In this document: positions 32,827 through 38,882 of the stretch, piece by piece
Position numbering within the stretch: the first letter of the stretch is position 1
Layout of the letters: each line of letters starts with the position of its first letter
From: Gloeobacterales cyanobacterium
GTDB taxonomy: Bacteria; Cyanobacteriota; Cyanobacteriia; Gloeobacterales; PMM-0068
Direction of reading: 5' to 3'
Assembly: GCA_038245785.1 (NCBI GenBank)
Contig: JBBRSB010000028.1
Coordinates: forward strand, 1-64,000
DNA: 64,000 bases
Notes under the pieces: generated by a model
What the model was told of the DNA's origin: nothing
What the model saw: only the letters and a program-made list of their open reading frames with translations
The model's database searches: none
Translations under genes and position numbers: made by a program

Positions 32827-33051
32827 ATGACAGACTTATTAACTCGCATCACTCAAATTCCCGGTCAGTGTGGTGGTCGCCCCTGTATCAGAGGAATGAG
32901 AATTCGGGTTAGTGACATTCTAGAGATGATGGCTGAAAACGTCAGCATTCAGGAGATCCTAGAAGACTTCCCCGACCTTGAGCTAGAAGATATTCAAGCT
33001 TGCTTGCTATTTGCTGCCCGACGTACTGATTTCACTCGACTCACTGCATGA
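32827..33051 (+). CDS. DUF433 antitoxin (VapB45-like)
   Basis: CGGRPCIRGMRIRV..DI.ACL.FA. Confidence 0.92.
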   Translation: MTDLLTRITQIPGQCGGRPCIRGMRIRVSDILEMMAENVSIQEILEDFPDLELEDIQACLLFAARRTDFTRLTA

Positions 33052-33200
33052 ACATCTGGGTTGATGCTCAGTTGCCACAGATCTTATGGTTGACCTGTGG
33101 TAATGTTACGAACCGCAACTTACGGCGTCTACTTTCACTTACTCTACCTGATGCCCTAGAACGCTTACGGCAGGGGGAGATGATTGTAGAGATTGGATAG
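33048..33200 (+). pseudogene. DUF5615 PIN-like toxin with internal in-frame deletion
   Basis: MNIWVDAQLP|QILWLTCGNVTNRNL..IVEIG* (50 aa); ATGA-coupled to DUF433; central part of the family sequence missing. Confidence 0.8.
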
Positions 33201-33571: not shown

Positions 33572-33728
33572 TGGTATTTCCTTGCTACCTGTTCATTATC
33601 AAGCCTGTTTTTAGTTAGTCTTTAGAGTTTATGAACATATGTCCTTATTTCATGTATCTTTAGATTGGGCGACACTGTAGTGCCCTCGCGTTATAATTCA
33701 CTCCAATTCCCACTAGATATAGAGAAAT

Positions 33729-36296
33729 ATGGGTTACGTCAGCCTGCATACCCACAGCGAATATTCCCTATTAGATGGGGCTTCTCAGCTGCCCGACCTG
33801 ATAGAGCAAGCCAAAAAATTGAATATGCCTGCCATTGCGCTCACAGACCATGGCGTGATGTATGGAGCAATTGAGCTGATCAAGCGCTGTCGCAACATTG
33901 GGATGAAGCCGATTGTCGGGGTAGAAGCCTATGTGATCAATGGAGATGTACGGGATAAGAAAGCCCGTCTTCCTCGCTATCATCAAATTCTGTTAGCCAA
34001 AAATTACCAAGGCTATAAGAACCTCGTCAAATTAGTGACGATTTCTCATCTGGAAGGATCCTACTATAAGCCCCGGATTAATAAAGAACTATTAGAGCAA
34101 TATCATGAAGGTCTGATTGTTACTTCTGCCTGCTTGGGAGGAGAAATTCCTCAGGCTATCCTTCAAGGAAAAATAGAGAGAGCCTATGAAGTTGCAGTTT
34201 GGTATAAGCGGGTCTTCGGGGATGATTTCTATTTAGAAATTCAGGACCATGGTAGTCGAGAAGACCGAGCGGTTAATCCAGAAATTGTTCGAATTGCCCA
34301 GAAGTACAAGATTAAAATAGTGGCAACCAATGATTCTCACTTCACCTGCATGGATGATGTGGATGCCCATGATGCTTTGCTTTGTATCCAAACAGGCAAG
34401 TCTATTGAAGAAGAAAATCGTCTGCGTTATACCGGAACGGAATATCTAAAATCCCGCACAGAAATGGCAGGGATGTTCCGAGACCACTTGCCTTTAGAAA
34501 TTGTGGAAGAAGCACTTGAAAACACGTTGGAAATTGCAGACAAAGTAGAAAAATATGACCAAGAACTGCTGGGCGGAATGCGGATGCCCGACTTCCCCAT
34601 TCCTCAAGGTCATACTGCGGAAACCTATCTGGAAGAATTAACTTGGGAAGGACTGAGAGAACGATTTAAAGAAATAAAGATTGTCGATCCAGAAGAGAAA
34701 GTGCCCTATGAAGAGCGGCTCAAATATGAGCTGAAGATGATGCAACAGATGGGATTTTCTACCTATTTTCTAGTCGTTTGGGACTATATCAAATATGCCA
34801 GTGACCATGGCATTCCCGTCGGGCCAGGTAGAGGTTCTGCGGCAGGTTCTCTAGTCGCCTACGCGCTGCGCATTACGAACATGGACCCCGTGCGCTACAA
34901 CTTGCTGTTTGAACGATTCCTGAATCCTGAGCGTAAGTCTATGCCTGATATTGATACGGATTTCTGTATTGAACGACGGGGCGAAATCATTGAATACGTA
35001 ACAAAGCGTTATGGGGAAGACCACGTTGCCCAAATTATTACGTTTAACCGATTAGCTTCGAAGGCAGTCTTGAAAGACGTCGCCCGAGTTATGGAAATTC
35101 CATACAGTGAATCTGACCGGATGGCGAAGATGATTCCTGTTTTCCGAGGGAAGCCTGCCAAACTAGACAAAATGATTTCTGAGGATACGCCCGCTCCAGA
35201 ATTCAAAGAAGCTTATGATAAAGACCCAAGAGTTAAGAAATGGGTAGATCTGGCCCGTCGGTTAGAGAATACAAACAAAACTTTTGGAGTTCATGCTGCA
35301 GGGGTGGTTATTTCCCGCGAACCGCTTGATGAGATTGTGCCTTTACAGAAGAATAATGAAGGTCAAGTCATCACCCAATACTATATGGAAGACATTGCAG
35401 ACTTGGGTCTGTTGAAGATGGACTTCTTGGGCTTGCGGAACTTGACCATGATTCAAAGGGCGTTAGAAATTATTGAAGCCAAGAATAAAGAAGTCATTGA
35501 TTTAGACACCCTGAGCTTAGATGATGAAAAAACCTATGCCCTGCTAGCGAAGGGAGAACTTGAAGGGATATTCCAATTAGAATCATCAGGAATGAAACAG
35601 ATTGTAAAAGATTTGCGCCCTTCAAACATTGAAGATATTTCTGCTATCTTGGCGCTCTATCGTCCTGGTCCTCTAGATGCAGGAATGATTCCTGACTTTA
35701 TTAACCGCAAACACGGTCGTCAGAAAATTCAATATGATGATCCTCTATTAGAGCCGATTCTAAAAGACACCTATGGGACTATTCTCTATCAAGAGCAAAT
35801 CATGAAAATTGCTCAAGATTTGGGAGGTTATTCCCTAGGACAAGCAGACCTATTGCGTCGTGCGATGGGTAAAAAGAAAGCTTCTGAGATGGAAAAACAT
35901 CGTGAGCAATTTGTCGATGGGGCTACCCGCAATGGTGTTAACGCAAAGACTGCAACTAATCTGTTTGAACAGATGGTTATGTTCGCGGAATATTGTCTGA
36001 GCTATGATACTGAACTACTAACCCTTGAATATGGGCCTCTATCTATCGGTAAGATTGTAGATGAACAAATAGAGTGCACGGTCTACAGTGTGAATGCACA
36101 GGGCCATCTTTATACGCAACCTATCGCCCAATGGCATCATCGCGGGGAGCAAGAAGTTCTTGAGTATTCCTTAGAAGATGGTTCACGGATTCGAGCGACA
36201 AAAGACCATAAGTTTATGACTACTAATGGTCAAATGTTCCCTATTCACGAGATCTTCGAACAGGGTCTTGATCTAGTGTGCATGGGAGGCCTGTAG
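33729..36296 (+). CDS. dnaE: DNA polymerase III alpha, N-terminal half + split intein N-fragment
   Basis: PHP (SLHTHSEYS), [10 protein letters not shown] and PDIDTDF; ends [11 protein letters not shown].. intein. Confidence 0.98.
35994..36293 (+). other. Split DnaE intein N-fragment (100 aa)
   Basis: [32 protein letters not shown]; block A Cys1 and block B TxxH; closely resembles Npu/Ssp DnaE-N. Confidence 0.97.
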
Positions 36297-36298
36297 TC

Positions 36299-37078
36299 AT
36301 GCCAACTCGCTACGGCCAGTCAACGCTCGACCAAAAACAACAAATCATCGAAATATTCAATGTTGGTGTGGAATGCCGAGAGATTCCTAAATGTTTGGGA
36401 ATCAGTGAGAGGAGTGTTTCTAGAGTCTTAATCGAAGCAGGAATTAACACTAAACGAAGAAATCGGTACACCCTGAATGAAACCTATTTTGACAAAATTG
36501 ATTCTCAGGTTAAAGCTTATCTCTTGGGACTGTTAGCAGCGGATGGCTGTGTCACTAAAACCAACTATGTGTCTTTTGAGTCTGTTGATGGAAATTTAAC
36601 TGAACTACTGAAAACAGAGCTGCAATATACTGGGGAAACTAGACTTATCTTCCCAAAAGACTATGCTCCTCACTATCGGATTAATTTTTCTTCCAAGCAA
36701 TTAGCTCACGCTCTATCTCGACAGGGTGTCCAGGTAGGGAGAGGGGAATCTGGTCTGTTCTATTTTCCCGAAACAGAATTTTTAAGTTCTTACATACTGG
36801 GCTACTTTGATGGAGATGGCTGTGCCCATGTCAATAAAGGTAGAAGTGGGGGCTCACTGAGCATCGTGGGTTCTTTAGAATTTACAAGCGAAGTGGCAAG
36901 ACTTTTAGGTGTGGGCTCTATACAGAGACATCATTCAAAACCAGTGTACTACTGGAGAATTTTTAGCCGCATCAATATACAGGCATTCTACAACTTGGTA
37001 TACAAGGTGCCTTCATTAGGATTACAGCGCAAAAAAATCAAAATTGAACAGATTTTAGGGAGCTATCGACGTGGTTAA
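36299..37078 (+). mobile_element. Free-standing double-motif LAGLIDADG homing endonuclease gene with N-terminal HTH
   Basis: AYLLGLLAADGCV and SYILGYFDGDGCA motifs; ATG 2 nt after the dnaE-n stop with GGAGG SD; LQRKK tail. Confidence 0.92.
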
Positions 37079-37178
37079 AATCATTAGCTGTACATCATTA
37101 GGGACTCAATCTGTTTATGACATTGGTGTTGAGCAGGACCATAACTTTGTTCTAGCAAATGGTTTAGTGGCTTCTAAT
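37071..37178 (+). other. Split DnaE intein C-fragment (36 aa)
   Basis: Block F VYDIGV..HNF; terminal ASN followed by +1 Cys (CFN). Confidence 0.97.
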
Positions 37179-38420
37179 TGCTTCAACAAAGCACATTCTG
37201 CTGCCTATGGATTAATTACTTATCAAACAGCTTATCTTAAAGCAAATTACCCCGTAGAGTATTTAGCAGCGCTGCTCTCTTCTGTTAGAGGAGACCAGGA
37301 TAAAGTTCAACGTTACTTGGCTGCCTGTCAGGTCATGGGCATTTATGTATTGCCTCCAGATATCAATCGTTCTGGTCCTGACTTTACGCCGGAAGGGAAA
37401 ACCATCTTATTTGGACTTGCGGCGGTTAAAAATGCAGGAGACGCTGCGGTAGATAGTCTGCTCAAAGTGCGTGACCAAGAAGGTCCATTCACTTCTCTTG
37501 CCGATATCTGTGACCGTATTGATAGTCGGGTTGTCAACAAAAGAGCCTTAGAAGCCTTGATTCGTTGTGGAGCCTTGGATACGCTCCATAGCAATCGCAA
37601 TCAGATGCTTTGTGACCTGGAACTTACTCTGGAATGGTCTATCCGCCGAGCACGAGACCGAGCCTCGGGACAAGTCAATCTTTTTGATAGCTTGTTGTCT
37701 GGAACGAGCACAGCGGAACAAATGTTTGATAGCGCTCCTAAAGGACCCATCGTCGAAGATTTACTTCCCCAAGATAAGCTCAAGATGGAAAAGGAACTGC
37801 TGGGTTTCTATGTTTCTGACCATCCCCTCAAATCCATAAGAGAAGTGGCTAGAATCTTGGCACCGATTAATCTGATTGATCTACCGGATTATCGAGAGGA
37901 AGCATCGGTCAGCGCCATTATTTTAGTTACAGAAATGAAAGTAGTGACTACGAAAAAGGGTGACCGGATGGCGATTCTGCAAGTAGAAGACCTTACTGGA
38001 AGCGCCAGTGCTATTCTCTTTCCAAAAGCCTATGAGCGCTTAAATGAATGCTTTAAGCCCGATGCCCGCTTGATGATCTGGGCCAAGGTAGACCATAAAG
38101 ATGACCAGCCTCAGTTAATCCTCAATGATGCCGAACCGATTGAGGATGTCCGCATGATTTTGGTTGAACTTTCTCCAAACCAAGCGAGAGAAATCCAAGT
38201 CCAGCATCGATTGCGTGAACTGCTGGGGAGTCAAGCGCCTGAGAAGAAAGAAGAGCTTGGATTGGTACCTGTGATTGCCCGGATTGATTTTGGACAGGAA
38301 CATCGCTTCGTTCGCTTTGGCCCCCAGTTCCGCGTCAAGAATGCAGATGCTACGGTCGCCCTTCTCAATCAATCAGGATTTAGTGCTCAAACCCAGACCG
38401 TAGTTCCTGCGGTGGGGTGA
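37071..38420 (+). CDS. dnaE: Split intein C-fragment + DNA polymerase III alpha C-terminal half
   Basis: GTG start, GGGAG SD; MVKII..VYDIGV..HNFVLANGLVASN|CFNKAHS; HhH and OB-fold regions follow. Confidence 0.98.
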   Translation: MVKIISCTSLGTQSVYDIGVEQDHNFVLANGLVASNCFNKAHSAAYGLITYQTAYLKANYPVEYLAALLSSVRGDQDKVQRYLAACQVMGIYVLPPDINRSGPDFTPEGKTILFGLAAVKNAGDAAVDSLLKVRDQEGPFTSLADICDRIDSRVVNKRALEALIRCGALDTLHSNRNQMLCDLELTLEWSIRRARDRASGQVNLFDSLLSGTSTAEQMFDSAPKGPIVEDLLPQDKLKMEKELLGFYVSDHPLKSIREVARILAPINLIDLPDYREEASVSAIILVTEMKVVTTKKGDRMAILQVEDLTGSASAILFPKAYERLNECFKPDARLMIWAKVDHKDDQPQLILNDAEPIEDVRMILVELSPNQAREIQVQHRLRELLGSQAPEKKEELGLVPVIARIDFGQEHRFVRFGPQFRVKNADATVALLNQSGFSAQTQTVVPAVG

Positions 38421-38426
38421 GGAGGG

Positions 38427-38882
38427 CTATCTTTCAACCTCTTGTTCTTGATTAATATGGATGCGATCCATGCCTTCTTTAATCCAATCAATACAATCTT
38501 GTTCACAGATGAATATTTTAGGGGCGGCGATATTATCTAGACCGTGGGGAGGATAGTGGTCATAAAAATACTTGCCTGCCATTTCAAAGATGATGATTAA
38601 GTTATCTCGATAAGTGTATCGATTTTTAAAGTAATCAGTTTCGGAAGGTGTTGCTGAATGGGTATCTAGATATTCTTTAGCAATAGTGACAATTCCTTCT
38701 GGACTATCCGTACAAAGTCCTCCTGGATTTTCTACCTGGTGGAAACGACCTTCCAGACCCAATTCAGACAATAAGATATAGGAATATAAAGGCTTATCGT
38801 GCATGAGGGAGATGGTAGAAAATCTGAAAGGAATGAGCAGATGTCCCCGATAGGAAATAGATTTTTCGTAGAGCAATCGCAT
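38427..38882 (-). CDS. Hypothetical protein, likely conserved in cyanobacteria
   Basis: 151-aa ORF with internal repeat (Y.GHLLIP / Y.DNLII). Confidence 0.7.
   Translation of the reverse strand: MRLLYEKSISYRGHLLIPFRFSTISLMHDKPLYSYILLSELGLEGRFHQVENPGGLCTDSPEGIVTIAKEYLDTHSATPSETDYFKNRYTYRDNLIIIFEMAGKYFYDHYPPHGLDNIAAPKIFICEQDCIDWIKEGMDRIHINQEQEVER

Follow-up and report, generated by a model that had tools for sequence, protein, structure and literature searches.

A LAGLIDADG endonuclease gene between the split-intein halves of dnaE in a Gloeobacterales cyanobacterium: a probable homing cassette at the classical DnaE intein site

Since 1998 it has been asked by what route an essential gene for the replicase could come to be split into unlinked genes without a lethal intermediate. 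A homing cycle of invasion, fixation, endonuclease decay, loss and re-invasion was reportedly described by Goddard and Burt in 1999 for a yeast mitochondrial intron endonuclease. Here we analyse the dnaE locus in 64,000 nucleotides (nt) of DNA from a Gloeobacterales cyanobacterium (contig JBBRSB010000028.1 of assembly GCA_038245785.1; this whole stretch is hereafter referred to as the window). In the window the N-terminal and C-terminal halves of the split DnaE intein, IntN and IntC, are separated only by the gene of a free-standing LAGLIDADG endonuclease. Comparison with other genomes indicates that the IntN-endonuclease-IntC unit is probably a homing cassette, a single selfish insert that invades an otherwise continuous dnaE gene and is gained, decays and is lost.

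The classical split DnaE intein (Ssp of PCC6803, Npu; insertion point a of PolIII-alpha in the available part of Novikova et al. 2016, PMC4760082) occupies the same site, FAEY/CFNK, as the intein of the window, and the two share half sizes (~100 and 36 amino acids, aa) and splicing residues. The textbook halves are, however, unlinked and without an endonuclease, and in its available sections the paper of Dassa et al. 2009 (NAR 37:2560; PMC2677866) states that cyanobacterial dnaE halves are at separate loci. In the window they lie 0.78 kb apart in one operon with the endonuclease gene between them, and close relatives of its host, unlike the textbook cases, have no intein altogether. The fractured genes of Dassa et al. 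are similar in organization: a housekeeping DNA-metabolism gene is present as two adjacent same-strand genes that carry split-intein halves, with a free-standing endonuclease between. As far as the accessible text of that paper goes, its ~26 loci come from marine and lake metagenomes and are of phage-like origin, whereas the locus described here is in a cyanobacterial chromosome; the endonucleases are GIY-YIG or Vsr-like instead of LAGLIDADG, and the three DnaE loci use other insertion points, in contrast to the classical DnaE intein at the classical site found here. For the hairpin present upstream of the Dassa endonuclease genes, which we count as an accessory trait, there is no room in the 2-nt spacer of the window. 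The model outlined in the same text proceeds from a fractured gene through endonuclease loss to genomic uncoupling.

A 2026 preprint, in whose available portion dnaE is mentioned in passing, describes an out-of-frame endonuclease in a cis-splicing cyanobacterial dnaX intein; its authors suggest secondary invasion of a mini-intein. As in the window, the gene is a cyanobacterial replisome gene and the endonuclease is in another frame than the splicing domain. The dnaX intein is likewise sporadic and incongruent with its hosts, with intein-free and intein-bearing alleles among close relatives. It is, however, one polypeptide that splices in cis, whereas in the window the stop and start signals of the endonuclease gene break the intein into two proteins, so that splicing must be in trans. 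In the available part of a Thermosynechococcus genome paper a split dnaE intein is noted without an endonuclease. In the full-text literature outside subscription papers we found no description of an endonuclease gene between cyanobacterial dnaE halves, nor of a cassette polymorphism. A chromosomal fractured gene that is driven by a LAGLIDADG endonuclease and sits at the classical DnaE intein site is, as far as found, undescribed, and it is not rare in public genomes. A first-pass annotation of the window, made from the sequence alone, knew of no report of the arrangement and had weighed whether it might be common and already described: it has turned out not to be unique, and a published description was not found.

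The features of the locus are as follows:

33669-33697, + strand, promoter-like site GCGACA-17-TATAAT upstream of dnaE-n, a consensus match only
33729-36296, + strand, dnaE-n, 855 aa, with a TAG stop at 36294-36296 (open reading frame list, raw sequence)
33729-35993, + strand, dnaE N-extein, 755 aa, with PHP, polymerase core and fingers, ending in MVMFAEY (open reading frame list, family scans)
35994-36293 plus stop to 36296, + strand, IntN, the N-terminal half of the split DnaE intein, 100 aa, running from CLSYDTE to CMGGL, with Cys1 and block-B TKDH
35994-37178, + strand, IntN-endonuclease-IntC cassette, 1185 nt, the proposed mobile unit
36284-36289, + strand, GGGAGG ribosome-binding site of the endonuclease gene, within the last IntN codons and 9 nt 5' of the ATG
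ATG 36299 to TAA 37076-37078, + strand, LAGLIDADG endonuclease gene, 259 aa, in a frame different from that of dnaE-n
37057-37062, + strand, AGGGAG ribosome-binding site of dnaE-c, within the 3' end of the endonuclease gene and 8 nt 5' of the GTG
GTG 37071 to 38420, + strand, dnaE-c, 449 aa (open reading frame list, raw sequence)
37071-37178, + strand, IntC, the C-terminal half of the split intein, 36 aa, with a GTG start, containing DHNFVLANGLVASN and ending in LVASN
37179-38420 including the stop, + strand, dnaE C-extein, beginning CFNKAHSA, with HHH_6 and OB fold (open reading frame list, family scans)

The host gene is split into two same-strand genes, adjacent open reading frames (ORFs) on the + strand, between which the polymerase domains are divided in Pfam and NCBIfam scans. 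The product of dnaE-n matches PHP, DNA_pol3_alpha and finger domains and intein_Nterm (2.3e-14), that of dnaE-c matches intein_Cterm (8.7e-9), and the NCBIfam models of cyanobacterial half-genes match as well (NF007079 for dnaE-n, NF005616 for dnaE-c, the latter above its cut-off). In the raw sequence the IntN stop is followed after 2 nt by the ATG of the endonuclease gene, and the endonuclease stop and the dnaE-c start overlap by 8 nt. The insertion point, FAEY/CFNK, is in the fingers region of DnaE, before the conserved Cys-Phe-Asn-Lys. The window IntN is 53-78% identical to IntN of 112 other genomes of a 401-genome sample and of fetched loci, and the window IntC is 61-86% identical to IntC of fetched loci. 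The translations contain all residues required for splicing (Cys1, TKDH, terminal Asn, +1 Cys), and the source genome, 98% complete in 255 contigs, contains one dnaE and one copy of this endonuclease. Since dnaE is single in a genome of this completeness and the splicing residues are intact, the two halves would be expected to be trans-spliced into full-length DnaE.

The locus reads as one operon of three translationally packed genes. The promoter-like site at 33669-33697 is the only one positioned to drive all three; the consensus scan found no promoter-like site on the + strand of 35358-38700, and is weak evidence as it returned 6 sites in the region compared to 10.1 expected from shuffles. 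The terminator-like hairpins found are weak ones only. Judging from these predictions, the three genes are probably co-transcribed as one mRNA. The ORF list, raw sequence and family scans confirm the order and coordinates of IntN, the 259-aa LAGLIDADG gene and IntC as the first-pass annotation gave them, and bear out its description of the locus as a fractured dnaE operon, in which classical split-intein halves flank a free-standing LAGLIDADG gene with two motifs.

The 259-aa product matches Pfam LAGLIDADG_3 (PF14528) with 48 bits compared to a cut-off of 22.5 (E 1.5e-12). Its main elements are:

36326-36436, + strand, N-terminal three-helix, helix-turn-helix-like region, residues ~10-46, with helices at 10-21, 26-33 and 37-46 in the model
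36518-36553, + strand, LAGLIDADG motif 1, YLLGLLAADGCV, with acidic residue D82
36791-36826, + strand, LAGLIDADG motif 2, YILGYFDGDGCA, with acidic residue D173

In an alignment of 19 family members that are 56-93% identical to the window protein, residues A81, D82, G83, C84 and V85 of motif 1 and G168 through A176 of motif 2 are invariant in 19/19. AlphaFold2 modelling (mean pLDDT, the predicted local distance difference test score, 83.7; one of five models confident) produced a fold of two alpha-beta-beta-alpha-beta-beta-alpha halves behind the three-helix N-terminal region; this region is conserved in the family alignment and has a weak match to NCBIfam HTH_Cbp1 (0.0016). A Foldseek search returned 141 PDB chains at E <= 0.001, of which the best ~50 are LAGLIDADG enzymes, inteins or maturases. 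The best matches are E-DreI, I-AniI, I-Tsp061I, bI3 maturase and PI-PfuI, with TM-scores (template modelling scores) of ~0.5 and E-values of 3e-7 to 2e-5. The pairwise ratio of non-synonymous to synonymous substitution rates (dN/dS) is 0.09-0.16 in six of nine pairs, the more divergent ones. It is 0.33 and 0.46 in two near-identical pairs with few changes and undefined in the last pair, in which synonymous sites are saturated. Because of the values of 0.09-0.16, we conclude that the endonuclease is under purifying selection.

Among 821 candidates the endonuclease family comprises at least 248 clusters at 90% identity (E <= 1e-5), and nearly all of the best 120 clusters are 250-269 aa long. Source names include Aerosakkonema, Gloeocapsopsis, Microcoleus, Chroococcidiopsis, Ancylothrix, Chamaesiphon and Trichothermofontia; some members are labelled simply 'endonuclease' by NCBI. 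In a class-wide sample of 401 species-representative genomes from 169 genera, the gene is present in 9 genomes that belong to five genera and five families. Every homologue of at least 44% identity that could be placed sits between IntN and IntC of dnaE. All nine genomes of the class sample have IntN and/or IntC beside the endonuclease as far as their contigs reach (those of G005 and G401 end within the locus), metagenome loci L116-L122, with endonucleases 44-66% identical, have IntN/IntC flanks in 7/7 cases, and the Capilliphycus gene is flanked likewise. A family found at one site only is what a site-specific homing enzyme predicts.

Beyond this range, 160 viral and metagenome loci were fetched, of which 13 have a dnaE or intein match; the other 147 are distant relatives, 26-38% identical and in other contexts. 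Two viral loci (L088, L112) have such an endonuclease gene between dnaE pieces. No close copy of the endonuclease was found on viral contigs; a phage vector for the cassette was considered and is unsupported, the viral relatives being just 26-34% identical. A match in G052 (E 7.3e-4, 27% identity over 75 residues) was disregarded. A search of longer proteins, itself weak evidence, found no full-length cis intein with this endonuclease and gave two matches among 1692 candidates. One of them, P0121 (546 aa, metagenome), is a fragment of DnaE in which IntN is joined in frame to a 40%-identical LAGLIDADG endonuclease, and it reads as a split intein with the N half keeping the endonuclease; the other, P0122, is unrelated to dnaE. 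Metagenome contigs L121 and L122 have the IntN-endonuclease-IntC order with an endonuclease 45% and an IntN 53-56% identical, and their exteins are only 28-42% identical to those of the window; the cassette there probably resides in a non-cyanobacterial dnaE.

The window was compared with 41 genomes of relatives, including two of the same genus (G401 and G402) and 11 of the same order. Its N-extein protein is 95% identical to those of G401 and G402 and 71-76% identical to those of the same-order genomes. G401 contains IntN and the start of the endonuclease; joined to locus L004 by 119 identical overlapping bases, its contig C57 reveals an endonuclease gene with an in-frame deletion of residues ~92-231. 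In G402, dnaE is one continuous intein-less frame of 1170 aa, in which the N-extein match (1-758) runs straight on; the window C-extein protein is 91% identical to this allele. Within a single genus, then, dnaE occurs in three states: with an intact cassette, with a cassette whose endonuclease is dead, and empty. All 11 same-order genomes have continuous intein-less dnaE frames of 1157-1180 aa. Because the window lineage is nested among intein-less relatives, the whole cassette appears to have been gained at or before the origin of the genus, within an otherwise intein-less order, and not kept vertically as a relic. DNA identity is 93.2% between G401 and G402, 86.8% between the window and G401, and 87.5% between the window and G402. 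Since G401 and G402 are closer to each other than to the window, the genus needs one gain and one exact loss, or two gains.

Presence and absence of the cassette were followed at higher resolution in the Microcoleus-like genus g3, whose endonucleases are 92-100% identical to proteins labelled Microcoleus by NCBI. The cassette is found in 9/19 sampled species; the remaining 10/10 have continuous intein-less dnaE genes of 1277-1307 aa. On the tree of dnaE N-exteins both states are mixed within each of three subclades, and the N-extein of cassette-bearing G119 is 97.6-97.7% identical to those of the empty G148 and G188. Because dnaE itself recombines, a second host tree was built from 5,795 ungapped columns of the rpoB-rpoC1 region of the same 19 genomes; G246 is not part of these data. 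This tree also mixes the states: G336, with the cassette, pairs with the empty G252 at 100% bootstrap. After pruning of outgroups and of two metagenome loci, a minimum of six state changes was counted on either maximum-likelihood tree; with nodes below 95% support treated as soft polytomies the minimum is four (rpoB-rpoC1) or five (N-extein). The cassette of G336 is 98.3-98.7% identical to those of G216 and G119, whereas the N-exteins are 91.7-92.2% identical, and between G292 and G056 the cassettes are 94.6% and the exteins 86.8% identical. Cassettes that are more alike than the surrounding conserved host gene must have moved horizontally, and we conclude that the cassette has moved between species of g3.

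The empty alleles define the target site exactly. In the intein-less alleles of G402 and of the 10 g3 genomes the exteins abut precisely at FAEY/CFNK, and across 11 empty alleles the only differences from cassette-bearing flanks in the 48 nt spanning the junction are at synonymous positions. The +1 Cys is native to the empty dnaE gene. An empty target was also found in run X4, which comes from another study and contains related sequence at 88-99% identity. One contig (depth 77.6) joins 35991 to 37177 and thereby skips 1185 nt, the length of the cassette, with 4 ambiguous joint bases. A second contig (depth 16.5) lacks 693 nt within the endonuclease, a third is interrupted at 36362 and resumes with the endonuclease 3' end, and full-length endonuclease sequence is present at a depth of 4.2 only. 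The contigs may come from different species of the genus; empty targets and cassettes coexist in this one sample. Runs X2 and X3 yielded short pieces only.

Decayed endonuclease genes occur in cassettes with intact intein halves. They include a nonsense codon at the invariant YYW in G292, a stop four codons early in G330 and a frameshift near the end in G005. A deletion remnant is present in G312 (L027 4572-5105, G312:C21), the sister of Capilliphycus on the extein tree. Its dnaE halves are 144 bp apart, and the spacer is made up of ~60 nt from the start and ~45 nt from the end of the endonuclease gene as it stands in Capilliphycus, 94-98% identical, with the ATG mutated to CTG and ~661 bp missing. 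The 3' piece left in the two deletion derivatives, G312 and G401/L004, is the one with the ribosome-binding site and start of dnaE-c.

Indirect support for site-specific cleavage of the empty allele by the endonuclease, and for homing of the cassette, comes from the confinement of the family to one site, from horizontal transfer among g3 species and from an empty allele with exact boundaries. We propose that the endonuclease would recognise and cut uninterrupted dnaE around FAEY/CFNK, in an incoming or a resident empty allele, and that repair off a cassette-bearing copy would insert the whole IntN-endonuclease-IntC unit. The host would survive because the intein halves would associate and, by trans-splicing, restore full-length DnaE from both polypeptides. 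Once the cassette is fixed, the endonuclease would no longer be selected and would decay; its 3' end would persist, being the part that contains the ribosome-binding site and start of dnaE-c. An empty allele could then displace the cassette again through recombination. The states of the homing cycle are all seen among close relatives in g1 and g3, for a split intein in an essential bacterial gene instead of a yeast mitochondrial intron endonuclease. Unlike that cycle, the process may here have a one-way exit, since exact loss is impossible once the halves unlink. The idea of the first-pass annotation that the unit may still be homing-competent fits the intact, selected endonuclease, the presence/absence polymorphism and the horizontal movement in g3.

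The adjacency could have been an artefact of metagenomic assembly joining separate loci, given that the source genome is a 255-contig draft and that contigs of relatives often break at the locus (G005, G401). A Logan contig of run X1, 22,768 nt long with a depth of 59, nevertheless covers 33700-38450 with 0 differences; X1 is the probable source sample, so that this identical 22.8-kb contig is a second assembly by a second assembler and not second data. The same gene order is present in the complete chromosome of Capilliphycus salinus (L003; frames of 896, 257 and 448 aa), in more than 20 other loci and wherever the endonuclease was found, five cyanobacterial families included. Mis-assembly, a doubt that the first-pass annotation had raised against itself, is thus very unlikely, and its probability can be regarded as negligible. 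That annotation had also suggested that the locus may be a relic of the origin of the split intein. Under this explanation the adjacency was inherited vertically from the first split of dnaE, while other lineages lost the endonuclease and their halves drifted apart. The arrangement is indeed the stage before unlinking in the model of Dassa et al. 2009, in line with the annotation's expected intermediate, at least as that model is laid out in the available text. Later stages of the model exist elsewhere, namely the endonuclease remnant of G312 and halves that are 0.85-2.2 kb apart, 6-13 kb apart or apparently unlinked among the matches listed for other genomes, and within the window's genus cassette and extein have diverged to a similar degree. 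Retention from the first split would, however, require many independent exact losses, as 11/11 same-order genomes and the same-genus G402 are intein-less. The cassette tree of g3 conflicts with both host trees, the endonuclease is found in just 5/169 sampled genera, and the IntN tree, poorly supported as it is, does not place endonuclease-linked inteins at the base. The relic explanation is therefore quite unlikely. A related thought of the first-pass annotation, that the lineage might be nested among taxa with unlinked dnaE and have recently acquired an endonuclease, is right as to the nesting; the neighbours (11/11 same-order genomes, one of two same-genus ones) are intein-less rather than unlinked, and the insertion was of the whole IntN-endonuclease-IntC unit.

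The cassette could also spread and vanish as a passenger of ordinary recombination between dnaE alleles, with the LAGLIDADG protein inactive or retained for some other function, for instance DNA binding or aiding dnaE-c expression. The dnaE gene of g3 is visibly mosaic, so allele exchange occurs anyway; several endonuclease copies are broken while the intein is kept; the 3' end of the gene, needed for the translation signals of dnaE-c, could alone preserve part of it; and the modelled N-terminal region is helix-turn-helix-like. Yet dN/dS of 0.09-0.16 extends across the whole 259 codons and not the 3' end alone, both catalytic motifs are invariant in 19/19 members of 56-93% identity, and the family occupies this single site only, as a site-specific homing enzyme predicts. 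We consider the passenger explanation unlikely, and homing of the cassette remains the preferred reading. Several observations weigh against it nonetheless. Within the window's genus cassette DNA identity is 89.8% (G000 versus G401), close to the 86.8% of the extein, with no sign of recent movement. The empty allele of G402 may reflect a loss, or a second gain elsewhere. No close donor of the window cassette was found, the nearest cassettes outside the genus being 67-71% identical. Sliding-window identity of the window to G402 and G401 gives a mosaic profile, in which the junction surroundings are too conserved to reveal a co-conversion tract. Such windows also resolve no tract when G336 is compared with cassette-bearing and empty relatives; the dnaE genes of g3 species are mosaics of one another, with the 200-300 nt beside the junction 95-99% identical in all, and the interleaving of states in g3 could in part come from ordinary recombination of dnaE alleles. 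No RNA run is among the runs listed as containing the stretch, and the window IntC is without the Arg-Lys basic pair of relatives, which may affect the association of the halves.

In a phylum sample of 401 genomes from 156 genera, IntN was detected in 113 genomes and 56 genera. Distances between the halves were obtained by comparing by eye the places of IntN with those of dnaE-c, for which 150 of 405 matches are listed, and all distances hold among these. Besides the LAGLIDADG cases, adjacent co-oriented halves are found in G346 (0.85 kb apart), G017 (0.88 kb), G328 (1.7 kb) and G047 (2.2 kb); the halves are 6-13 kb apart in G008, G092, G140, G276 and G398. In the other genomes that have both on the same contig the distance ranges from 30 kb (G238, on opposite strands) to several Mb, and in most draft genomes the halves are on different contigs. 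IntN is present in 45/45 genomes of family f7 and 20/20 of f8, families whose halves seem to be unlinked (most drafts have them on different contigs; where one contig has both, they are 97 kb to several Mb apart); f3 is patchy, with 12/25. In a tree of 37 IntN sequences of ~94 aa most bootstraps are below 70, and endonuclease-linked inteins are neither one clade nor basal; L227, L230, L232 and L120, in which the motif search detected no IntN, are not part of this tree.

Adjacent halves allow exact loss of the cassette and unlinked halves do not, which constitutes a ratchet, and the uniform unlinked families as compared to the patchy f3 fit it. We tentatively suggest that the best-known split intein may persist as an active homing element between cyanobacterial species, and that the unlinked dnaE-n and dnaE-c of Synechocystis, Nostoc and most others may be dead-end descendants in which the endonuclease decayed and the halves separated; this is a possibility to which we give somewhat less than even weight. 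The locus and its relatives supply the fractured-gene intermediate for the classical DnaE intein itself, in living chromosomes, with neighbouring states among close relatives: empty genes, intact cassettes, decayed endonucleases, a cis-fused mini-intein and halves pushed apart. The origin and spread of the best-known split intein thereby become experimentally approachable. In addition, they give access to new DnaE-type intein pairs from nature, to a cis version that is likewise natural, and to a new LAGLIDADG enzyme whose 1185-nt insertion site is defined and lies in a conserved gene.

The gaps between closely spaced halves contain the following genes:

L018 3289-3948 (G017:C1), gene of a putative restriction endonuclease of the Uma2 family (Pfam 5.6e-23)
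L019 2025-2702 (G346:C26), 226-aa gene with no Pfam match, in which D...EAK reads like a PD-(D/E)XK site
L016 1945-3993 (G047:C1), 683-aa ORF with no Pfam match

A histidine-kinase gene on the opposite strand lies between the halves in L017, L020 and L021 (G328, G008 and G092, all of one genus), at distances of 1.7, 6.2 and 8.2 kb; this is possibly a stage of drifting apart. In G308 (L028 900-3950, G308:C24), three extra partial copies of the last ~35-40 IntN codons follow dnaE-n on its 3' side and alternate with a 290-aa gene for an apparently Mrr-like nuclease, a PIN-like toxin/antitoxin pair and a small gene pair. It looks as if successive cassettes had integrated at the 3' end of IntN, each with a replacement tail. 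In other lineages, further selfish genes of nucleases and toxin-antitoxin systems seem to be drawn to the dnaE split site.

A continuous DnaE of 1591 aa with two cis inteins is encoded in G246 (L015 2847-7622, G246:C106). The upstream intein is located at ILRR/CLSGST...FIAHN/CMGKKK and includes a LAGLIDADG-like stretch. At the classical site there is a contiguous mini-intein, in which VKIISRK of IntC directly follows the IntN tail KQINSKSH; going by its translation, this would represent the DnaE split intein in a natural cis form. According to the available part of Novikova 2016 (PMC4760082), all known inteins at insertion point a are split. A second, isolated IntN-like copy is present in G166 (G166:C7:119181-119426) in a 99-aa frame. 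The IntN of G274 (G274:C1:2895983-2896279) is within an open frame of 2702 aa, so that dnaE-n must hold further large inserts there.

Charge complementarity reportedly drives the association of DnaE intein halves. At 37089-37094 the IntC of the window reads Cys-Thr in place of the basic pair Arg-Lys found in g3, Capilliphycus and most relatives, and it is left with one basic residue. The charge-driven association of its halves may be weaker than in relatives.

Just 5' of dnaE-n, at 32827-33200 of the window, there are ORFs of 74 and 50 aa that overlap by 4 nt. The pair resembles a small toxin-antitoxin-type pair, of which the second member is perhaps truncated.

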